From an uncultured bacterium (GTDB taxonomy: Bacteria; Patescibacteriota; Saccharimonadia; Saccharimonadales; Saccharimonadaceae): a stretch of DNA of 64,000 nucleotides. The stretch lies in assembly GCA_966186595.1 (NCBI GenBank), contig CBIFWO010000003.1, forward strand, positions 306-64,305, read 5' to 3'. Below, one piece after another: positions 697 through 22,408 of the stretch. The position numbers and the translations under genes are program-made. Below the pieces are notes generated by a model, which saw nothing but the letters and a program-made list of their open reading frames with translations, was not told the DNA's origin and did not search any database. Every line of letters starts with the position of its first letter. The stretch's first letter is position 1.

Positions 697-1134
697 CTAT
701 TCTACAGTTAGAGTACCACGCTTTGAAGGATTGTAATGGTTGTGAAAGCCCCACTCCCCCTTCTTCGTAACGGTCACTTCTTTGATTTGACCTGGCGCGA
801 TGTCTTCGGAGTTCATCTCTGGATTGGCGGTGTGAACAGGGTGCGGATCCGATGCGAACTCGATTGTGTCATCTGTTTCGTTGAGGATCTTGATCTTTTG
901 ACCAGACTTCACCGAGAAGGTTGCTGGACTGAATCCGTCCGCGTTGTAGGTCACTACTGCACCGACGTCGTCGGCTGTATCAGAAGATTCATTTGCGCTC
1001 TGTGAACTATTTTGTGACGAGTTGGTTGGTGTTGTTTCGGGACTTTTCTTGTTATTATTCGCGATCGCCCATACCCCGACGGCTATAATGACGACGAGTG
1101 CACCCAGGGCAATGATTTTATTGGTTTTGTTCAT
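697..1134 (-). CDS. membrane-anchored cupredoxin-like domain protein
   Basis: 145 aa. N-terminal TM helix (IIALGALVVIIAVGVWAI), then an S/T/N-rich linker. The C-terminal beta-rich block (GFSPATFSVKSGQKIKILN ... GEWGFHNHYNPSKRGTLTV) resembles EfeO-type cupredoxin-like domains but has no Cys ligand. Confidence 0.6.
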   Translation of the reverse strand: MNKTNKIIALGALVVIIAVGVWAIANNNKKSPETTPTNSSQNSSQSANESSDTADDVGAVVTYNADGFSPATFSVKSGQKIKILNETDDTIEFASDPHPVHTANPEMNSEDIAPGQIKEVTVTKKGEWGFHNHYNPSKRGTLTVE

Positions 1135-10198: not shown

Positions 10199-11281
10199 CT
10201 AAAGATTCCATGCTGTCTTAGTCATGGAGAGGCTAGGAATGACTTCGAGATCTGTCGGATCGACAGGTGATTTCAGCTGGGCGTAATAGTAACCGAGGGT
10301 GGCAATCATAGCGGCATTATCGGTACAGAGCTGCATCGGGGCATATTCGATAGAGAGGGGAAGGCGGGCGGAGAGTTCGTCGCGGAGGGCTTGATTAGCG
10401 GCGACGCCTCCGGCGATGACAACGGATTTGGGCGAGTAATCCCGGAAAGCTCTCTCGGCTTTATCAACGAGGGTCTCAACGGCGACACGCTGAAAACTGG
10501 CAGCAAAATCAGCGCGCTGGACGTCATTTAAGCGCGCAGGAAGCTCGTGTGAAGGAAAAGTGTAATCAACCCCAACTTCGTGCTGGACGGTCCGCAGGAC
10601 GGCTGTCTTGAGCCCTGAGAATGAAAAATTGTATGGGTTCTCGAGCCTTGCTTTGGGCAGTGTGTAGCGACGGGGATCACCATCAAGTGCGGCTTTGCTG
10701 ATCGACGGGCCGCCAGGGTAGGGAAGGCCAATGATTTTTGCAACCTTATCGAACGCTTCTCCGACGGCATCATCCTGAGTTTGGCCGAGAAGTTCGTAAT
10801 TACCATGATCATGAAACAGGACTAGCTGCGAGTGGCCACCGCTAACGATAAGGGCGAGCATGGGAAAATCGGGCTGTTTGGTCGGCAGCGATAGTGAGAG
10901 GTGGCTTGCCTGTTCGACGATAAAATTCGCATACACATGTGCCTCGACATGATGAATGGGGTAGAGCGGCTTGTTTTTGAGTAGCGCCAAGGTACGAGCG
11001 GCGAGTGTTCCCACCAGGAGAGACCCAATCAGACCTGGCGCGTAAGTCACGGCAATGGCATCGATATCATCCCAGGTGAGGCCGCCATCAGAGAGTGCCT
11101 GCTTGATGACGGGGTTGATTACTTCGATATGACTTCGTGCAGCGACCTCTGGAACGACACCCCCATAGGCAGCATGGATATCAATCTGAGAATTGACGAC
11201 ATTGCTTAGCAGCCGCCGGCCGTCTTCAACAACGGCGGCAGCAGTTTCATCGCAACTACTCTCGATTCCCAGAATTCTCAT
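10199..11281 (-). CDS. tsaD: tRNA N6-adenosine threonylcarbamoyltransferase TsaD
   Basis: 360 aa. MRILGIESSCDETAAAV N-terminus and HHVEAH metal motif, as in the Kae1/TsaD family. Confidence 0.95.
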   Translation of the reverse strand: MRILGIESSCDETAAAVVEDGRRLLSNVVNSQIDIHAAYGGVVPEVAARSHIEVINPVIKQALSDGGLTWDDIDAIAVTYAPGLIGSLLVGTLAARTLALLKNKPLYPIHHVEAHVYANFIVEQASHLSLSLPTKQPDFPMLALIVSGGHSQLVLFHDHGNYELLGQTQDDAVGEAFDKVAKIIGLPYPGGPSISKAALDGDPRRYTLPKARLENPYNFSFSGLKTAVLRTVQHEVGVDYTFPSHELPARLNDVQRADFAASFQRVAVETLVDKAERAFRDYSPKSVVIAGGVAANQALRDELSARLPLSIEYAPMQLCTDNAAMIATLGYYYAQLKSPVDPTDLEVIPSLSMTKTAWNL

Positions 11282-11374: not shown

Positions 11375-12199
11375 GTGACTATGTTGAGAAGAACTGTCGT
11401 TGCTGTTTTGGTGACGGTGTTCGTTGCTTTGGGGTTGGGGGTGCCAGTGGCAAACGCGAGTGGAGTGATGCCTCTCGATGATCAGAAGCTGATGCTTCGA
11501 GACTTGGGCATCAACAACTTGGGTCGGGTCGTCGTCGACAGTGCGATGACCTACCAACAGGCCATCGGTGACAGCGTCGTCCCGGAAGAGGGTCGCGCGG
11601 TGCACGCAGCGATGAAGCCGCACCTTCGCGTTGTTCCGGTGGCCTACTGGGGTCTGAGCAACAGCGGCCAACCCGATGGGCGTGTTCACGTGGGTCAGAT
11701 CGTGGTCCACCGACTGCTCGTTCGGGATACGCTGAAGACGACCCTGAAGATGTTCCAGCTGGGATTCCCGATCCACTCGGTGATTCCGCAGAGTGCGTTC
11801 GGGTACAGCGACGCTGAGTCGATGGCGGCGAACAACTCGTCCAACTACCGGCCCGAATCGGGGTCGGAGCACGGACGGGCTGCCGCGTTCGACTGGAACC
11901 CGGTGCAGAATCCGTTCGACATCACTGGCTACAACCCGAACGTGCCCGTGCAGCCGGCGGGCGCCGTGCACGACCCGACCAAGCCCGGCACTCTCACCAT
12001 GGATGGCGCAGTTCGCAAGTACTGGGCATCGTTGAACTGGGAGTGGGGTGGCAACTGGGGCAACCCGGACGCCGATCCGCCAACGGACTTCTTCCGGAAG
12101 GGGTTCTTCGACTGGCAGCACTTCCAGCTCAACGCGAAGCGGTACGACGCATTCGTCGCGCAGCTGCCGCCCTGTGTGCGTGACTGGACCTGCGTCTAG
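11375..12199 (+). CDS. secreted LAS/M15-family peptidoglycan peptidase (VanY / M15_4-like); GC-rich
   Basis: 274 aa. Signal peptide (VAVLVTVFVALGLGVPVANASG). SEHGRAAAFD matches the S-x-H-x-x-G-x-A-x-D motif. WEWGGNWG...DWQHFQL matches the W.WGG.W...D..HF motif of M15 peptidases. The antisense 305-aa ORF is Arg/His-rich junk. Confidence 0.65.
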   Translation: MTMLRRTVVAVLVTVFVALGLGVPVANASGVMPLDDQKLMLRDLGINNLGRVVVDSAMTYQQAIGDSVVPEEGRAVHAAMKPHLRVVPVAYWGLSNSGQPDGRVHVGQIVVHRLLVRDTLKTTLKMFQLGFPIHSVIPQSAFGYSDAESMAANNSSNYRPESGSEHGRAAAFDWNPVQNPFDITGYNPNVPVQPAGAVHDPTKPGTLTMDGAVRKYWASLNWEWGGNWGNPDADPPTDFFRKGFFDWQHFQLNAKRYDAFVAQLPPCVRDWTCV

Positions 12200-13012: not shown

Positions 13013-13627
13013 TCAACTGACGAGGTCCAGGACTTCATCGGTGAAAATCTCGAAGTTGAGATGAAGCGAGTACTCGGGAGTGCTTGCTTCATGTTCGACA
13101 TCTGGTGGCATGATCAGGATGTCGCCAGCTTCGAGCACGAGTTCTCGCCGTGGTTCAGTCCCTCCGTCCTCGCGGATGAGTAGGCGCTTGGATCCTTCGA
13201 TCTGAGTGATGACGCCTACCCACCGATCGGTGTGCGGAGCGAATGATGCATCACCTGCCCGCGACTGGTAGGCGGAACAGGCGACCGGGAACTCTGTTGC
13301 CCCCGCGAGCATGATCTCGACAGCCCTGACCCATCCTCCGCCGTGCTCGCCCACATTTTCGCATACCTGAGTACGCGGTTGGGCGGAGTAGGCGGCCTCC
13401 ACGTCAGTGGTAGCCAGTTGTCGCTCGATGCCCTCGGGGCTCAGTAAGGACACTTTCTGGGTCGACGCCCGATCCTCACCGATTGCCATGGGCAGCGATT
13501 GGAGCCACGCCGGGTCGAAAGCGCCCTTCACGTGGAGCAGGCTGACAGAGGGGTTAGCTCTGGAAAACCCACTCGCGACGAGGACGCGCCAGAGCCGTCT
13601 GGCTACAAGGCTTGCCTCGTCGGACAT
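13013..13627 (-). CDS. JmjC/cupin_4-like Fe(II)/2-oxoglutarate oxygenase, short form (copy 1)
   Basis: 204 aa when started at ATG 13627, by alignment with copies 2 and 3; the track ORF runs on to 13765. H-x-D...H triad (APHTDRW ... VEHE) and QIEGSKRLLI. Confidence 0.7.
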   Translation of the reverse strand: MSDEASLVARRLWRVLVASGFSRANPSVSLLHVKGAFDPAWLQSLPMAIGEDRASTQKVSLLSPEGIERQLATTDVEAAYSAQPRTQVCENVGEHGGGWVRAVEIMLAGATEFPVACSAYQSRAGDASFAPHTDRWVGVITQIEGSKRLLIREDGGTEPRRELVLEAGDILIMPPDVEHEASTPEYSLHLNFEIFTDEVLDLVS

Positions 13628-13628
13628 G

Positions 13629-13793
13629 TCAGCTGTGGTGCACATGGGGCATCCCCGCCCTGATGTCGTAGCTGTACCCCCTGGCCACCCGGCTGCCGAG
13701 CGCAGCTTCCACGGCATGCCAGTCGAACTCGGGCAGTGGTGCGTCGGGCAGCTCGTCGAATTCAACGGAGGCTGCGATGGCTGGCGCGGTCAA
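13629..13793 (-). CDS. conserved small peptide P1 (54 aa) coupled to cupin 1
   Basis: TTG at 13793 lies after GAAGGTGAG. The stop TGA is 1 nt before the cupin ATG. Sequence MTAPAIAASVEFDELPDAPLPEFD...GYSYDIRAGMPHVHHS aligns with P2 and P3. Confidence 0.55.
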   Translation of the reverse strand: MTAPAIAASVEFDELPDAPLPEFDWHAVEAALGSRVARGYSYDIRAGMPHVHHS

Positions 13794-13842
13794 GGAACTC
13801 ACCTTCTCCTTTGTTGCTTCACACTCGGAATGAGCTAATTGC

Positions 13843-13872
13843 ACGATACAACACATTAATACACATAGTCAA
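13843..13872 (-). promoter_or_regulatory. promoter-like motif of unit 1 (TTGACT-N18-TATCGT)
   Basis: Minus strand: TTGACT at 13872..13867 and TATCGT at 13848..13843. Equivalent motifs in unit 2 (14865..14837, TTGACT-N17-TACTGT) and unit 3 (15840..15812, TTGACG-N17-TATGGT). Confidence 0.45.
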
Positions 13873-13921
13873 TGTATATCGAGGCAGATAAATACAAGAA
13901 TTGTACCCCGAGACATGAAAC

Positions 13922-13950
13922 TCCCCCCGGCCATCGATCGACCGGGGGAA
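13922..13950 (-). terminator. conserved unit hairpin 2
   Basis: 7-bp GC stem (cccccgg / ccggggg) around a loop containing atcgatcga, downstream of the cupin-2 stop. Confidence 0.45.
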
Positions 13951-13976
13951 GCTCTCCATGAGTGAAGTCGACCCGA

Positions 13977-14597
13977 TTATCCCGTGCGGAGCAGGGGCCG
14001 ATCCGTGAAAATCTCGAAGTTGAGATGAAGTGAGGACTCGGGAGTTCTCACTTCATGCTGGACATCTGGCGGCATGAGCAGGACGTCTCCGGCCTCAGTC
14101 ACGAGTTCCTGGAGGGGTCCCCGCCCATGGTCATCTCGTACCAGCCAGAGCTTCGAGCCCTTCACTTGGGGGATCAGCCCAATCCATCCGTCGACATGGG
14201 CGTCGAATGACGCATCTCCCTTTCTCGACTCATAGGAGGAACTGCTGACGCAGAACCCCGTAGCCGCAGAGAGGGCGATCACAACGTCCCTCACCCATCC
14301 GCCGCCGAACTTGCCCAGGTTCTCGTACGCGCGTGTACGCGGTTGGGCGGAGTAGGCGGCCTCGACGTCGGCGTCATGGAGCCATCGCTCGATCCCGTGG
14401 GGATCCAGCAGAGAGACCTCCTGACTCGCGGCCCTGTTCTCGCCTACGGCAAGGGGCAGGCTCTGTAGCCATGCCGGGTCGAATACCCTCTTCACGTGGA
14501 GGAGCCGGACAGAGGGGTTCTCCTTGGTGAACCCTCCCGCCGTTAACACGTGCCAGAGGGCATCGGCGACGGCGAGGGCGTCCGTCACTACCGTCAC
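13977..14597 (-). CDS. JmjC/cupin_4-like Fe(II)/2-oxoglutarate oxygenase, short form (copy 2)
   Basis: 206 aa. The GTG start overlaps the P2 stop (GTGA). AHVDGW ... VQHE triad and QVKGSKLWLV. Confidence 0.7.
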   Translation of the reverse strand: MTVVTDALAVADALWHVLTAGGFTKENPSVRLLHVKRVFDPAWLQSLPLAVGENRAASQEVSLLDPHGIERWLHDADVEAAYSAQPRTRAYENLGKFGGGWVRDVVIALSAATGFCVSSSSYESRKGDASFDAHVDGWIGLIPQVKGSKLWLVRDDHGRGPLQELVTEAGDVLLMPPDVQHEVRTPESSLHLNFEIFTDRPLLRTG

Positions 14598-14782
14598 GAG
14601 AGCGACGGGTCGAACGGGTCGCCGACGACGTGCTTGTGTGCGCCACCCCTAATCCTGTAGATGTACGGCTCGGCGACGGGACGGCAGATCGCTGCCGCAA
14701 TTGCGGCTGGATCGAGATCGGGCAGTGTCGCCTCGGGCAGCTCGTCGAAGTCGACGGTGACTGCAGTGGTTGGAGCAGACAA
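14594..14782 (-). CDS. conserved small peptide P2 (62 aa) coupled to cupin 2
   Basis: TTG start. Sequence MSAPTTAVTVDFDELPEATLPDLD...PYIYRIRGGAHKHVV. 4-nt overlap with the cupin start. Confidence 0.55.
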   Translation of the reverse strand: MSAPTTAVTVDFDELPEATLPDLDPAAIAAAICRPVAEPYIYRIRGGAHKHVVGDPFDPSLS

Positions 14783-14911
14783 TTGGAGCTCACCTTCTCG
14801 GTTAGTGGAACTTCATGCTCAGAAAGAGCTAATTGTACAGTATGATATATTATACGCATAGTCAATGTACATTGAGCAGATAAATACCAAAGGCACTATG
14901 AGACATGAAGC

Positions 14912-14938
14912 TCCCCCGGTCAACGATCGACCGGGGGA
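14912..14938 (-). terminator. conserved unit hairpin 3
   Basis: The same 10-bp stem (tcccccggtc / gaccggggga) with a 7-nt loop. Confidence 0.5.
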
Positions 14939-14968
14939 AGCTCTCCGGAGGGGAAGAAAACACCTAGC

Positions 14969-15583
14969 TCACCGGGTGAGGGGTAGATGGGTGAAGATCT
15001 CGAAGTTGACGTGAAGTGAGGACTCGGGAGTGCTCACTTCATGTTCAACAGTGGGTGGCATGATGAGAACATCACCCGCCTCGATGATGAGCTGCTGCCT
15101 CGGGCCCGTCCTCCCATTGCGAATCAGGAAGCGCTTTGAGCCCTTGATCTGAAGGATCACTCCGATCCAACGATCAACGTGCGCCCCGAAGGACGCATCG
15201 CCTGCTAGTGACTGATAGGCCGAACATCCGACGGAGAATCCCGTGGCGGTTGCCAAGAGAAGTTCTACGTCCTCGATCCATCCGCCACCGAGCTTGCCCA
15301 GATCCTCGTACACACGGGTACGAGACCGGGATGCATAAGCAGCCTCGACATCGGCGTCGTCGAGCCATCGCTCGATCCCGTCAGGGCTCAACAAGGACAC
15401 CTTTTGATCGGCGGCCCGGCGTTCCCCAATCGGCACTGGAAGGCTCCGTAGCCATTCCGGGTCAAGCGCGCGTCTGACGTGCAGAGCTCTCACAGAGGGG
15501 TTGCCTCTGGAGAATCCGCTTGCTGAGACGACGCGCCACAGCGTGCCGGCAATAGCTACCGGTGCCTCGATGGTGGTTGGCAT
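14969..15583 (-). CDS. JmjC/cupin_4-like Fe(II)/2-oxoglutarate oxygenase, short form (copy 3)
   Basis: 204 aa. AHVDRW ... VEHE triad and QIKGSKRFLI. About 55-65 % identical to copies 1 and 2 by eye. Confidence 0.7.
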   Translation of the reverse strand: MPTTIEAPVAIAGTLWRVVSASGFSRGNPSVRALHVRRALDPEWLRSLPVPIGERRAADQKVSLLSPDGIERWLDDADVEAAYASRSRTRVYEDLGKLGGGWIEDVELLLATATGFSVGCSAYQSLAGDASFGAHVDRWIGVILQIKGSKRFLIRNGRTGPRQQLIIEAGDVLIMPPTVEHEVSTPESSLHVNFEIFTHLPLTR

Positions 15584-15587
15584 GGCA

Positions 15588-15758
15588 CTACCTAACTGCA
15601 GTCAGGTGTGCATGGCCTCCGGACTCCATCTCATAGAGGTATGGGGTGCCCATACGACAATCCCTTGCCGCCTGCATGAGGTCGGGATTGGCATCGGGCA
15701 GCGTCACCGTGGGCAGGTCGTCGAGGTTGACGGTCTCTGCAATAATTGGCGCGGTCAA
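15588..15758 (-). CDS. conserved small peptide P3 (56 aa) coupled to cupin 3
   Basis: Below the ORF-track cutoff, so I translated it by hand: (TTG)MTAPIIAETVNLDDLPTVTLPDANPDLMQAARDCRMGTPYLYEMESGGHAHLTAVR. The stop TAG lies 4 nt before the cupin ATG. Confidence 0.5.
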   Translation of the reverse strand: MTAPIIAETVNLDDLPTVTLPDANPDLMQAARDCRMGTPYLYEMESGGHAHLTAVR

Positions 15759-15880
15759 GGAGCTCACCTCATCTTACATCGGTTTCTTCACGCTCAGAAA
15801 GAGCTGATCGTACCATACAACATAAGTTATTAATCGTCAATGCACCAAAAAGTACAACGGAATAGTGGTAGAATAGAAAC

Positions 15881-17176
15881 ATGAAAGAGGAGTTGGTAAA
15901 AGGGGCGCGACGTATCTTGCCACAAGGTGCAGTGCGTGGGCTGGAGGAGGCCTACCGTCGTAGTCGCGTTCGATTGATAAGCGCCAAATATGGCAATCCT
16001 GCAAAAGGGCTGAAGGTGATTGCCGTTACGGGTACGAATGGCAAGACGACAACGGTCAATTACATTAATGAAATTCTGAAGGAAGCCGGATACAAGACGG
16101 CGATGTTTAGTACCGCTTTGATCGAAGTGGCAGGTCAGACGAAATTGAATGATCTAAATGCGACCGTGGCATCAACCGAGCGAATGCAGCAATTCTTTCG
16201 GGATGCTAAACAGGCGGGCGCTGATTATGTGGTCCTCGAGATAACGAGTCATGCTCTCCAGCAGCACAAACTAGACGGTGTGCCGATTGAGGTGGCAATT
16301 ATGACCAACCTTACGCAGGATCATCTAGATTATCATAAGACAATGGACGAATATGCGGCTGCCAAAGCGAAGCTTTTCCAGGGTGAGCCAAAATTTATTG
16401 TGTTGAACCGTGACGATGAATGGTTTGATTATTTCAATCAATTTTATGCTGGTGCACAAAAAATCACCTACGGAACGCACGAGGAAGCCGAGGCGAAGAT
16501 CGACTACGTCAAACTCTATAAAAAGGGAAGTGAAGCTACAGTCGTGATCGATCATCAGACCAAGCTTCATCTGGCGACAGCCCTTCCTGGCAGGTTCAAT
16601 GTCTATAACATGACGGCGGCCGCGGCGACAGCATACCTTCTGGGGATGAAATTAACCGACATTGTTGAGGGTGTGGCAAATCTCGAAGGAATCCCTGGTC
16701 GTTTTGAACGAGTCGTTGAGGGAATGGGCTATGATGTAATCGTTGATTATGCACACACGCCCGACGCCTTGCAGCAGCTACTCGAAGCGGCAAAGGCTGT
16801 CACGAAAAATCGCGTCATCCTGGTATTTGGGGCGACGGGCGATCGTGACAAAAGCAAGCGTCCAATCATGGGCGAAATTGCCGCCAAATACGCAGATCGA
16901 ATTATTTTGACCGACGAAGAGAGCTACAACGAAGATCCAGAAGGCATACGTGCACAAGTGCGAGAGGGGATTGAAAAAGCTGGCGCCGACGGGAAATTAA
17001 CCGAAATCCCAGATCGCCGCGAAGCCATTGAAAAAGCCCTTTCTATTGCAAAAAAGAACGATACAATTTTGATTACTGGTATGGGGCACGAGCAGTTTCG
17101 GATCGTGAACGGGGAAAAATTGCCTTGGAATGACGGCGAAGTGGTCCGCGAGATTCTAGATACCAAGAAGTCTTAA
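15881..17176 (+). CDS. murE: Mur ligase, MurE-like (UDP-MurNAc-L-Ala-D-Glu--diamino acid ligase), lacking the usual N-terminal domain
   Basis: 431 aa. Motifs GTNGKTTT, LEITSHAL, TNLTQDHLDYH, PGRFNVYN, GRFE, VDYAHTPDAL, GATGDRDKSKRP. DEES stands where DAP-type enzymes have DNPR. Confidence 0.8.
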   Translation: MKEELVKGARRILPQGAVRGLEEAYRRSRVRLISAKYGNPAKGLKVIAVTGTNGKTTTVNYINEILKEAGYKTAMFSTALIEVAGQTKLNDLNATVASTERMQQFFRDAKQAGADYVVLEITSHALQQHKLDGVPIEVAIMTNLTQDHLDYHKTMDEYAAAKAKLFQGEPKFIVLNRDDEWFDYFNQFYAGAQKITYGTHEEAEAKIDYVKLYKKGSEATVVIDHQTKLHLATALPGRFNVYNMTAAAATAYLLGMKLTDIVEGVANLEGIPGRFERVVEGMGYDVIVDYAHTPDALQQLLEAAKAVTKNRVILVFGATGDRDKSKRPIMGEIAAKYADRIILTDEESYNEDPEGIRAQVREGIEKAGADGKLTEIPDRREAIEKALSIAKKNDTILITGMGHEQFRIVNGEKLPWNDGEVVREILDTKKS

Positions 17177-17185
17177 AATGCGATA

Positions 17186-17224
17186 AGCCGCAACCAGGAT
17201 ATGTGCTATCGACTGGTTGCGGCT
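17186..17224. terminator. bidirectional hairpin between murE and Z1
   Basis: Perfect 12-bp stem (agccgcaaccag / ctggttgcggct) with a 15-nt loop. Confidence 0.65.
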
Positions 17225-17261
17225 CGCAATTCGATCATTCGCTGTTCTAATGCCGGAGCGC

Positions 17262-17492
17262 TTAGAAAGCGAGCTGGTGATCGCCCGAGATGCAGTTCGG
17301 GCATACCGGCTTCTCTGGAACCGGTTGGCCAGCGGGAATGTTGAACGTCTGGCGACAGATGCAGTTCGGCATTCTGCAGTCACAGGTTGCCTTTTGGTCA
17401 CTGTCCACCTGAAAGCAGCTCCTCTCATTAGCCGAACATATTCGAATGTGCTCGTTATCATACTCCTCAACTGAGCAGAGATCAAGGTTCAT
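17262..17492 (-). CDS. small Cys-rich protein Z1 (76 aa)
   Basis: Shares TC.C....C.C...F.IPAGQ.VP..P.C..C..G.H with Z2 and Z3. Has a longer N-terminus. No clear SD; its ATG lies 11 nt after a hairpin (17504..17538). Confidence 0.5.
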   Translation of the reverse strand: MNLDLCSVEEYDNEHIRICSANERSCFQVDSDQKATCDCRMPNCICRQTFNIPAGQPVPEKPVCPNCISGDHQLAF

Positions 17493-17616
17493 AAAGGACG
17501 AAAGCCGTGACCGGGACTACTTACCGACCGGCCACGGCCTGTACATTCGAGTCACCATGTATGGTCGTTGATCTTCGCCGGTCCGCATCCGGTTGTGAAG
17601 CGACCAAGGAGACTAC

Positions 17617-17799
17617 CTACGAGCCAGGGTGATTACCGCTGGCACATTGTGGACAAATCGGAAATTCTGGAACTACCTGCCCGGCTGGAATCCTGAAGTC
17701 CCTGGTGCAGGGGCAGTCATTCACCATGCAGTAGCAGGTGTACGACCCTCCATTGCTGATCTCCAGTTCCTCACCATTATTTTTACCAAACCAGGTCAC
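17617..17799 (-). CDS. small Cys-rich protein Z2 (60 aa)
   Basis: GTG start 9 nt after GGAGG. Sequence MTWFGKNNGEELEISNGGSYTCYCMVNDCPCTRDFRIPAGQVVPEFPICPQCASGNH. Confidence 0.6.
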   Translation of the reverse strand: MTWFGKNNGEELEISNGGSYTCYCMVNDCPCTRDFRIPAGQVVPEFPICPQCASGNHPGS

Positions 17800-17967
17800 T
17801 AGGCCTTGCCTCCTCTGTCGTCAGGGTCTTCGAACGTCTTGAATCATAGCAGACAAAGGGGAAAGAATCTAGGCTAGTAGGGGCCAGGACCGGCACTATC
17901 TTTAAACTAGTCCTGGCCCCCGGTTCGAGCCTCACCCAGGGCAGCACTCACCGTGTGGCCGATGGAC

Positions 17968-18147
17968 CTACAGGTATAAATGCCTTCCTGCTACACATCG
18001 GGAGCACTTCGGTGTACTCGGTACCGGTTGCCCGGCGGGGATGATGAAACTGTCTTGGCAGATGCAGAGGGTGTGTGAGCATCTGCACGTGTAGGCGGCT
18101 CCTGCACTGATCTCAACCTCATTGCTGCCACTGCCCCATAAAGGCAT
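17968..18147 (-). CDS. small Cys-rich protein Z3 (59 aa from ATG 18147; track ORF extends to 18180)
   Basis: MPLWGSGSNEVEISAGAAYTCRCSHTLCICQDSFIIPAGQPVPSTPKCSRCVAGRH aligns end to end with Z2. AAGGG lies 6 nt before the ATG. A perfect 11-bp hairpin sits downstream at 17880..17920. Confidence 0.6.
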   Translation of the reverse strand: MPLWGSGSNEVEISAGAAYTCRCSHTLCICQDSFIIPAGQPVPSTPKCSRCVAGRHLYL

Positions 18148-18227
18148 TGGACGCCCTTCTCTTCCGTTGCGAGCTAGCACGAACGTATCTACTGTAGCAC
18201 TTGATGCTCCTGTTGACCAGTGGTTAC

Positions 18228-19265
18228 TTAATAATAATTTTCGTGTTTAAAATAGTAATGCAAACGGGTAACGATTCGTTCGCCCAGCATTCGCCATACT
18301 TTATAGGCAAAAGGTCTGACAACAATATCGTACGCACCGACATAATCAGTGACTTCTTTGTTAAAGCTAGTCTTAAACCTGCCGATGCCGTAGTGGGGAT
18401 GATCGGGGTTGTTGATCTGATCTGAAGGAGGTGCGCCACAAAGGTCATGGGAAGTAACACCTTTTTCCTTTACCCACTTGATAACATGCCACTGCAAGAG
18501 GTGGCTGGCCCCGTAGACGGTTCGTTCGCGAACGGATGCGCCGTCTTTGTAGGTGCCTTTTTTGCCAAAGGTGATCGCATAGGCACCCGCGACGATCTGT
18601 TTATCGACGTAGGCAAAGAAAAGCTGTCCGAGGTTTGCCTGGGCATAGCGCTGCCAGAATGTCTTGTAGTAGTCAAAGCTTCGGATTCGGAATGATTCGG
18701 CGGCTGTTTCAGCGAGGAGGTCGTACATTATTCTGCAGTTTTCATCACTTGAATCCACACGTTTTACTGTAACTCCGTCGCGCTCGGCTCGACGAATGGC
18801 GTGGCGACCCTTTTGATTAAGATTACTCATGATGGTGTCGAGATCGGGCGATAGGTCAAGAAGGACAGTCGAGGAATTTGGTTGAATCGGGCGGACTTTG
18901 ATCAGGCCTAACTTCATAAGATCTGCCAGCGTCTCATCTTTTTTGATCAGTTCTGGCTCGATTTTTACCGCAAAAACACCATTTTCCTCAGCGAATTTCC
19001 TGAGGGGAGGAAGAAGGCTATCGAGCTGTCGGACTGAGGTAACTCCCGGGCCTTTTGGAATGTACCATAGTTTGCCGAGACCGACGATGGATTTCTCCAA
19101 GACAGTGATGGCGAGGTTTTCGGCCTCGACAAAACGCGGCTCCCATCCACCCAACCTTTTTTGCTCGGCAAATTCGGACCCTTGAAAGACATTGCCGCCG
19201 TCCGGATTGGCGAGAATACGGTCATTCCAGTTAGATTCTGTGTCGGGCGTAACGAATGTAATCAT
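18228..19265 (-). CDS. FemAB-family peptidoglycan interpeptide-bridge aminoacyltransferase (second paralog)
   Basis: 345 aa. GNVFQGSEFAEQKRLGGWEPRF matches the FemAB N-terminal signature. Same length class as the 9216..10187 gene. Confidence 0.75.
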   Translation of the reverse strand: MITFVTPDTESNWNDRILANPDGGNVFQGSEFAEQKRLGGWEPRFVEAENLAITVLEKSIVGLGKLWYIPKGPGVTSVRQLDSLLPPLRKFAEENGVFAVKIEPELIKKDETLADLMKLGLIKVRPIQPNSSTVLLDLSPDLDTIMSNLNQKGRHAIRRAERDGVTVKRVDSSDENCRIMYDLLAETAAESFRIRSFDYYKTFWQRYAQANLGQLFFAYVDKQIVAGAYAITFGKKGTYKDGASVRERTVYGASHLLQWHVIKWVKEKGVTSHDLCGAPPSDQINNPDHPHYGIGRFKTSFNKEVTDYVGAYDIVVRPFAYKVWRMLGERIVTRLHYYFKHENYY

Positions 19266-21915: not shown

Positions 21916-22353
21916 ATGGACGTCGATGAGACTCTGTTGGCTCGCTGCCAGTCAGCCCTCGACCAACTGCGCGATGCCAGCCAGAACTCCGAATTTCGCT
22001 CAACTGATGGGCGGAATGGAGCGATCAGCGGCAAGTCGGCGCTGTCGGCTGTCGGCATCCGGGGTGACGAGGCACAGGAAGTTCGCTACTACCTCCGCCA
22101 GCTCGGGTTGGCCAAGGCGGCGGAGGAGAGCGAACACGCTTCCAACCTGTGGTACTGGGACATCAGTTACGACGGGGGCGTCGAAGCCGATGCACTCCAG
22201 AAGCTGACAGAAGAGAAGCCTTGGAAGGGCCGCTCGAAGCGGCGGGGCGAGATCGACCCCAACGTCGAGAAGATCGCGGAGTTGACCGCGAAGCTCGCGG
22301 TGGCCGAAGCCGAACTGGCGCGCTACAAGCAGCGCTACGGCGAACTCGACTGA
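21916..22353 (+). CDS. GC-rich hypothetical protein with C-terminal coiled coil
   Basis: 145 aa with G/C-ending codons and its own promoter, SD and terminator. No recognisable family. Confidence 0.6.
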   Translation: MDVDETLLARCQSALDQLRDASQNSEFRSTDGRNGAISGKSALSAVGIRGDEAQEVRYYLRQLGLAKAAEESEHASNLWYWDISYDGGVEADALQKLTEEKPWKGRSKRRGEIDPNVEKIAELTAKLAVAEAELARYKQRYGELD

Positions 22354-22408
22354 TCGTTCCACTCATCTTATGCGCAGGATTCGTCCAGCGAAGTCAGATA
22401 CACTGGCG

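Follow-up and report, generated by a model that had tools for sequence, protein, structure and literature searches.

Three diverged copies of a rare Cys6His mini-protein between murE and femAB of a Saccharibacterium, with relatives on phage-like contigs

The stretch of 64,000 nt that was analysed here, hereafter the window (contig CBIFWO010000003.1 of assembly GCA_966186595.1), carries housekeeping genes of a Saccharibacterium (TM7), among them tsaD, sua5, murE, two femAB genes, groES/EL, tRNA synthetases, ribonucleotide reductase (RNR) and polA. Between murE and the second femAB gene lies a lineage-specific insertion that contains three small genes for cysteine-rich proteins, here termed Z1, Z2 and Z3. 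The Z array is co-directional with femAB and downstream of it, and the region is laid out as follows (coordinates are those of the window).

15881-17176, plus strand: murE
17177-18227 (1,051 bp), minus strand: lineage-specific insertion with the whole Z array, between the stop codons of the convergent murE and femAB
17186-17224, minus strand: stem-loop 3′ of Z1, before the murE stop; 12-bp perfect stem, -30.6 kcal/mol, z = -5.7
17262-17492, minus strand: Z1, 76 aa from ATG 17492; divergent N-terminus with three extra Cys
17504-17538, minus strand: stem-loop 3′ of Z2, -26.8 kcal/mol, z = -2.1; followed by TTTCGTCCTTT and directly upstream of the Z1 ATG
17617-17799, minus strand: Z2, 60 aa from a GTG start at 17799; Shine–Dalgarno (SD) sequence 9 nt upstream
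17880-17920, minus strand: stem-loop 3′ of Z3 (arms 17880-17890 and 17910-17920); 11-bp perfect stem, -34.4 kcal/mol, z = -3.7
17968-18147, minus strand: Z3, 59 aa from ATG 18147; SD-like GAAGGG at 18159-18154
18228-19265, minus strand: second femAB gene

A preliminary description, made from the letters of the window, had reported three paralogous small open reading frames (ORFs) on the minus strand at this place. All three are indeed present, and their protein alignment has 18 invariant columns, which fall within a 37-residue core and correspond to the shared pattern T-C-x-C-x4-C-x-C-x3-F-x-I-P-A-G-Q-x-V-P-x2-P-x-C-x2-C-x2-G-x-H. The motif as first written thus stands apart from one spacing, since five residues had been placed between the two CxC pairs and the correct number, from the second to the third Cys, is four. 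For 13 of the 18 invariant residues the codons differ between the copies, and pairwise comparisons gave saturated synonymous sites (proportion of synonymous differences, pS, 0.67–0.78) against a lower proportion of non-synonymous differences (pN, 0.35–0.45). The conservation therefore lies at the protein level and does not reflect a recent DNA repeat, and by this codon-level comparison Z1–Z3 are old, true, diverged paralogues of a small Cys-rich protein. Their start-to-start spacing is 352 and 351 nt.

The SD sequence that had been noticed ahead of Z2 was confirmed as GAGGAGG at 17815-17809. For Z3, an in-frame GTG at 18180 would give a product of 70 aa (ORF 17968-18180); the ATG at 18147 is the most likely start, because the N-terminus MPLWGSG then aligns with those of its relatives (MTWFGKN, MPLFGG and MARFR). 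Z1 has no SD sequence ahead of ATG 17492 and has a hairpin directly upstream of that codon, both as previously described. An alternative start of this gene is the in-frame GTG at 17408, 10 nt past GAGAGGAG (17426-17419), from which a 48-aa product would result, comparable in length to P0002 (51 aa), a member of the family presented below. The only promoter-like match in a consensus scan, and one at chance level, is a sigma-70-like hexamer pair (TTGATC-17-TATGAT, 17485-17457 of the minus strand) within the annotated 5′ part of Z1. Going by these signals, Z1 may have a promoter of its own and yield a protein of 48 aa.

The murE/femAB gap, which measures 1,051 bp here, is only -4 to 42 bp in ten close relatives, and the GC content of the insertion is 0.54, compared with 0.49 for both flanking genes. 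For a broader view we used 80 related murE loci, each covering up to ±10 kb and almost all labelled Saccharibacteria, and a hidden Markov model (HMM) of the Z family found no copy in any of the 80. At the same junction, unrelated cargo was identified in three other relatives, namely L011 (2306-3818, with a 312-aa ORF), L085 (11293-13129, with a 294-aa ORF) and L020 (1321-1766). Because the cargo at the murE/femAB junction differs from genome to genome, this junction is an insertion hot-spot. Moreover, four relatives (L009, L010, L014 and L018) carry blocks of 4–7 kb upstream of murE, between tsaD and murE, and across the tsaD/sua5/murE/femAB/pgm junctions strain-specific cargo differs among Saccharibacteria; this neighbourhood is an accessory-gene hot-spot.

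A Z gene was found at the same site in one sister genome. L091, a 3.9-kb contig of a sister Saccharibacterium, encodes a MurE that is 94.4% identical to the MurE of the window, with flanking genes at only 77–79% DNA identity, and its gene order is femAB - orf76 - P0001 - hairpin - murE - Sua5. P0001 (63 aa) is the closest Z homologue, present in L091 in a single copy at the same murE/femAB site. Between femAB and P0001, orf76 (725-955, plus strand) is an ORF of 76 aa with a Cys-rich C-terminus, CWPCKTPVRCTDAKQC. We considered a relation of orf76 to the leaders of the cupin-associated peptides that are encoded elsewhere in the window and rejected it, as pairwise BLASTP gave only a faint N-terminal match (E = 0.016) and the peptide HMM does not detect orf76.

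Turning to the stem-loops, the two hairpins listed in the preliminary description, at 17504-17538 and 17880-17920, the latter with an 11-bp perfect stem, were found where it had put them, whereas the third, at 17186-17224, was absent from its list. The hairpins that follow Z1, Z2, Z3 and P0001 can be aligned over a common 12-bp stem with 97.9% of the cells paired and with compensatory changes in 5 of the 12 stem pairs. Their covariation score was reached by none of 500 shuffles, and in slid controls the pairing dropped to 21–48%. The alignment of these four hairpins implies that the duplicated unit, with a period of ~351 nt, is an ORF together with its own downstream stem-loop. The stem-loop at 17186-17224 probably terminates transcription in both directions; it is kept beside murE in L091, where two of its pairs show compensatory changes. 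Since no hairpin occurs between the femAB stop and Z3, co-transcription with femAB or read-through from it into Z3 would be possible. A consensus terminator scan flagged none of the three stem-loops of the array, and Rfam, run on the array at a permissive threshold, yielded chance matches only. An ORF with a stem-loop behind it also brings to mind an integron gene cassette (ORF plus attC), a candidate that we rejected, as the stems AGCCGCAACCAG, GGGGCCAGGAC and GCCGTGGCCGG are, judged by eye, devoid of RYYYAAC / GTTRRRY core sites; there is no integrase among the annotated ORFs of the window, which was not scanned exhaustively for one.

The family to which the Z proteins belong is very rare. 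Among 1.84 billion representative proteins, searched exhaustively with an HMM, there were seven true relatives of 51–73 aa (E = 1.7e-11 to 2.8e-5), which have the same Cys/His spacing, so that the pattern goes beyond chance; an eighth match, a WD-repeat protein, is a false positive. Profile searches added six further relatives (P0009–P0014), and one uncultivated viral genome (UViG), a contig in IMG/VR, carries a further close variant, found by a broader alignment after IMG/VR scans had given no match. In all, 16 family sequences are known. Across all 16, the six Cys and the near-C-terminal His are invariant, which upholds the ligand set proposed at the outset, as are one Gly and one Pro, so that the family can be described by the signature C-x-C-x4-9-C-x-C-x17-18-C-x2-C-x4-H in proteins of roughly 50–75 residues. 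The IPAGQ-x-VP motif, which had been called invariant, is so among the three copies of the window only; family-wide, just its G and last P are kept.

As anticipated, the motif corresponds to no named family in Pfam, NCBIfam, PHROGs or PADLOC. Pfam-A gave nothing for Z2 and Z3 and only D_CNTX for Z1 (E = 2.5), with only weak, single-member matches for 10 members; PHROGs gave three single-member matches only (best E = 0.0019), NCBIfam and PADLOC gave no match, and PDB sequence profiles gave no credible one. A word-index search of 5.8 billion clusters with the three Z copies as queries found nothing, an exact-sequence look-up of Z2 found no record, scans with back-translated patterns found nothing in GTDB genomes or JGI metagenomes, and tblastn with four family members found no match in 50,697 isolate phage records.

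Outside the window and L091, all members are single-copy, non-core genes on phage-like contigs of high GC content (0.57–0.70). These contigs consist of strings of small co-directional genes, and the Z homologue lies among these or near replication or lysis genes. Phage genes were recognised on four of them.

L001: tape measure protein, virion structural protein, phage-type glycosyltransferase
L002: DNA primase/polymerase, single-stranded DNA (ssDNA)-binding protein
L003: LysM endolysin
L005: primase/helicase

The polymerase of L002 is ~60% identical over its full length to that of Rhodococcus phage ReqiPoco6 and of many Gordonia phages, and the primase of L005 is 31–34% identical to Arthrobacter and Mycobacterium phage primases. 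The genes that flank the Z homologue show no conservation across the phage-like contigs, and the related isolate phage Captrips has no copy in the 18.8-kb replication region examined. The Z gene is therefore an accessory gene that phage-like elements, some of them at least of actinophage type, carry only rarely. The family as a whole is unannotated and unmatched, but of a familiar sort, that of small, Cys-rich, probably zinc-binding phage accessory proteins. On L002, two ORFs of zinc-ribbon type (CxxC...CxxC; 49 and 52 aa; 10476-10783, plus strand) and a SNF2-like helicase come directly after the Z homologue, so that small Cys-rich proteins are clustered locally in the replication region of this contig.

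We obtained AlphaFold2 models on family alignments for two distant members, Z2 and the phage member P0009. Both have the same topology, with a mean predicted local distance difference test (pLDDT) score of 78.5 and 77.0, respectively: a short strand precedes the first CxC, another strand follows the second CxC, and the short helix begins at C-x2-C. With pLDDT values of 81–83, the N-proximal strand, which the ‘(I/V)S(N/D)G’ segment forms, belongs to the confident core of the models. Foldseek found nothing significant in the PDB (E about 9) or in BFVD. The resemblances that did emerge, none of them significant, are all to zinc modules, namely the Sir2 Zn-ribbon and LIM by profile (E about 1–2) and PHD and zf-CW by Foldseek, and since zinc modules alone appear in this set, a putative zinc-ribbon or knuckle-type domain is a reasonable reading. 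The models agree on a tiny beta-hairpin with a short helix, and the mini-domain suggested earlier stays a candidate.

The Z proteins are perhaps best viewed as phage-derived, predicted zinc-stabilised binding modules that entered an epibiont of Actinobacteria by capture and were amplified there, a reading in which we place moderate confidence; any specific target would have to be named with far less. Among the Actinobacteria are the known hosts of Saccharibacteria, and an interaction of phages with both groups has been proposed (PMC10746230). That such an epibiont carries the family points to its capture from an actinophage or from a prophage of the host, and to a use in the conflict between host, phage and epibiont. 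In such a scenario, the Z protein would be an intracellular mini-domain stabilised by a metal, most likely zinc, in which the second CxC, the P-x-C-x2-C knuckle and the short helix might form a zinc-ribbon or treble-clef-like site, and the first CxC together with the His a second site, possibly bridged or intermolecular. By analogy with other small phage early or accessory proteins, its action would consist in binding to a macromolecular target, not in catalysis. The gene would have moved from an actinophage, or from a prophage of an actinobacterial host, into the epibiont, where purifying selection would have retained it and amplification brought it to three copies; there it would serve in a conflict with three parties, namely Actinobacteria, actinophages and Saccharibacteria. 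As terminators, or as elements that stabilise the transcript, the stem-loops would make each unit self-contained.

Several observations weigh against capture of a phage zinc module. The family tree, built on ~45 columns, is unresolved, and the Z copies are as distant from one another as they are from the phage members. The direction of transfer is deduced from the distribution of the family and from GC content only, and actinophage affinity was examined for two of the phage-like contigs only (L002 and L005). At the level of the protein, no zinc domain is matched significantly either in sequence (profile E about 1–2) or in fold (Foldseek E about 9), and seven invariant ligands are ill-suited to two ordinary tetrahedral sites unless a bridging or external ligand takes part. 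The translation signals of Z1 are unclear.

The capture reading can be taken further. The Cys6His mini-protein could be a host-takeover module against an actinobacterial target, common to two unrelated kinds of parasite of Actinobacteria, actinophages and Saccharibacterial epibionts, that is, a captured phage early gene amplified to three diverged copies, used against or inside the host and built on an undescribed two-metal Cys6His fold; in this extended form we regard the proposal as unlikely.

Another explanation of small, Cys-rich, tandem and diverged paralogues in a hypervariable site, which are typical of bacteriocin precursor arrays, is that the Z proteins are exported Cys-rich peptides, either bacteriocin-like toxins or precursors of peptides synthesized ribosomally and modified post-translationally (RiPPs), with a leader of ~18 residues and a six-Cys core that is disulfide-bonded or modified. 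Precursors with a double-glycine leader have a cleavable leader that ends in GG, GA or GS, and a peptidase-containing ATP-binding cassette (ABC) exporter or modification enzymes are encoded nearby. The residues just before the core, EELEISNGG in Z2 and NEVEISAGA in Z3, do resemble such a leader, and two members show a weak match, one to Bowman-Birk and the other to ctenitoxin. However, most members have GQ, GE or GA, not GG, at the end of the ‘(I/V)S(N/D)G’ segment, which is preceded by only six residues in P0002 and which the models place in a confident core strand. Neither a peptidase-ABC exporter nor a modification enzyme is found among the larger window ORFs checked, which are housekeeping genes, and the neighbours of the phage homologues, which are not conserved, include no RiPP enzyme or exporter among those scanned. 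Furthermore, the invariant His is more in line with a metal ligand than with a disulfide knot, and the position of the phage members beside replication, lysis and small genes suggests that they act inside the cell. With a GG or GA end in some members only and no partner enzyme in the ORFs checked, we rejected the double-glycine-leader precursor as such, and consider an exported peptide of any kind improbable.

A metal-buffering or redox protein, whether a metallothionein-like (SmtA/BmtA-type) zinc or copper store or a CDGSH-like iron–sulfur protein, would account for the Cys content of the Z proteins (~10%), and the order CxC...CxC...CxxC..GxH recalls SmtA and the P-x-C-D-G-x-H end of CDGSH domains, a likeness that serves as a lead only. 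The alignment of the family with SmtA by hhalign has a probability of 0.3%, and neither Pfam at E <= 10 nor the PDB gave a match to the bacterial metallothioneins (Metallothio_Pro, PF02069) or to zf-CDGSH (PF09360). The C-terminal C-x-H-x2-C-x-C ligands of SmtA are absent from the family, and a metal store has no obvious function among replication, lysis and small genes of phages, so that this explanation seems to us quite doubtful.

That the array is decaying selfish or junk DNA, its ORFs being non-functional in the Saccharibacterium, is very unlikely. The site is an insertion hot-spot, Z1 lacks an SD sequence at its ATG and has a divergent N-terminus, and the family is missing from nearly all relatives, as such decay would have it; on the other hand, the three frames are intact and keep all family-invariant residues despite saturated synonymous change, a single copy is kept at the same site in L091 although the flanking genes have diverged to 77–79% DNA identity, and the stem-loops show compensatory changes. 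The idea from the preliminary description that the Z proteins are substrates, partners or inhibitors of MurE/FemAB or of the cupin/peptide cassettes on the other side of murE, in a functional module of three plus three genes, has in its favour only the physical adjacency in the window and the equal copy number of three, and we give it next to no credence, as the distribution largely refutes it: none of the 80 related murE loci has Z, cupin or peptide, so the murE-femAB pair occurs without Z in all of these relatives; L091 has Z and, its Sua5-murE spacing being 54 bp, no cupin/peptide cassette; the phage Z homologues all lack a cupin, peptide, Mur or Fem gene in their vicinity; the murE/femAB site is occupied by unrelated cargo in other genomes; and the cupin block, the M15 block and the Z block were each inserted separately, every one in an intergenic gap of its own. 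A cupin-like tblastn match beside the Z homologue of L003 (E = 0.82) is non-coding and no cupin.

The cupin/peptide block occupies 13013-15767 on the minus strand and consists of three tandem units, in each of which a peptide of 58–62 aa (pattern MSSLTAP...DELP...Y.Y..R.G.H.H) lies immediately upstream of, or overlaps, a JmjC_2/cupin protein of ~205 aa. With a GC content of 0.59, and of 0.66–0.74 at third codon positions (GC3), it fills the Sua5-murE gap, which measures about 54–210 bp in relatives. The cupin and peptide have no homologue in the 80 related loci or in L091, and the cupin has no meaningful PDB sequence match. In its gene arrangement the block looks like a cassette of a peptide and a peptide oxygenase, possibly RiPP-like. 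ARAGORN called a permuted transfer-messenger RNA (tmRNA) at 14315-14952 (plus strand, tag VQYDILYA), overlapping these units; Rfam reports none at the gathering threshold, and the call is in all probability spurious. In relatives tsaD and sua5 abut, but in the window a gene inserted between them at 11375-12199 (plus strand, GC3 0.79) encodes a Peptidase_M15_4 protein with a signal-peptide-like N-terminal segment, whose sole match in the phage collection is from an uncultured 636-kb phage (35.7% identity); the protein is probably a secreted cell-wall hydrolase gained by horizontal transfer. Just after groEL, at a local GC peak (0.62 in 22000-22399), a 145-aa ORF without a Pfam match (21916-22353, plus strand) may mark a further foreign insertion.

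How Saccharibacteria manipulate their actinobacterial hosts, and what most small phage accessory proteins do, is largely unknown. The Z family, kept under selection and tripled in one Saccharibacterial lineage, offers a concrete and cheap candidate of ~60 residues. In addition, it defines an unannotated metal-ligand signature, C-x-C...C-x-C...C-x2-C-x4-H, and its site reveals that strain-specific cargo in these Saccharibacteria has a hot-spot at the murE/femAB junction. Should the Z proteins be ordinary structural zinc ribbons without an effect on the host, they would extend the list of orphan phage genes only in a minor way.

Among known zinc proteins, a generic zinc ribbon has two Cys knuckles, normally CxxC, that flank a beta-hairpin and provide four ligands for one Zn. 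In the Z proteins, the C-x-C and P-x-C-x2-C pairs are 17–18 residues apart, with predicted strands between them. This arrangement resembles the Sir2 zinc module and the treble clef, in which a Cys knuckle and a short beta-hairpin are followed by P-x-C-x2-C leading into a short helix, and the profile indeed aligns C-x-C-x3-F-x-I...P-x2-P-x-C-x2-C of Z to C-x2-C...P-x2-P-x-C-x2-C of Sir2, though not significantly (E about 2.2); the secondary structure predicted by the models is consistent with such a layout. Unlike the Sir2 module, the Z protein has a CxC instead of a CxxC as this first knuckle, is free-standing rather than a sub-domain, and carries an extra invariant CxC and His, which brings the ligands to seven rather than four. 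PHD and zf-CW domains are the top Foldseek PDB matches of the P0009 model (template modelling, TM, score about 0.33–0.40) and similar to it in size (~60 residues), and PHD fingers, like the Z proteins, have a His among their Cys ligands. There is no sequence similarity of Z to PHD or zf-CW, and we rejected the PHD finger, as the Z proteins have seven ligands in the order C4-C2-H against eight in the order C4-H-C3, which in a PHD finger form a cross-brace around two Zn (Foldseek E = 8.9, TM 0.40).

The ligand order of the bacterial metallothionein SmtA, CxCx2CxC...Cx3Cx2GH, resembles that of Z, and SmtA/BmtA share with Z the order CxC...CxC...C-x2/3-C-x2-G-(x)-H and a length of ~55–60 residues. 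The Z proteins differ in their spacings and in being without the C-terminal ligands that complete the Zn4 cluster of SmtA; they conserve six Cys and one His, compared with Cys9His2 in that cluster, and the absence of any match, given above, led us to reject this family too. The CDGSH motif, C-X-C-X2-(S/T)-X3-P-X-C-D-G-(S/A/T)-H, was likewise rejected, as ~14 residues, not 6, separate CxC from P-x-C in Z, and C-x2-C-x2-G-x-H takes the place of C-D-G-x-H.

In genomic setting, the closest parallel is with the ‘orphan’ proteins of actinobacteriophages, which, like the Z relatives, are single-copy, non-core proteins of 50–75 aa, encoded close to replication or lysis genes within runs of short co-directional genes. 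Unlike such orphans, the Z family is absent from the isolate phage records searched by tblastn and from PHROGs, and it also resides in a cellular Saccharibacterial chromosome, where it is tandemly tripled.

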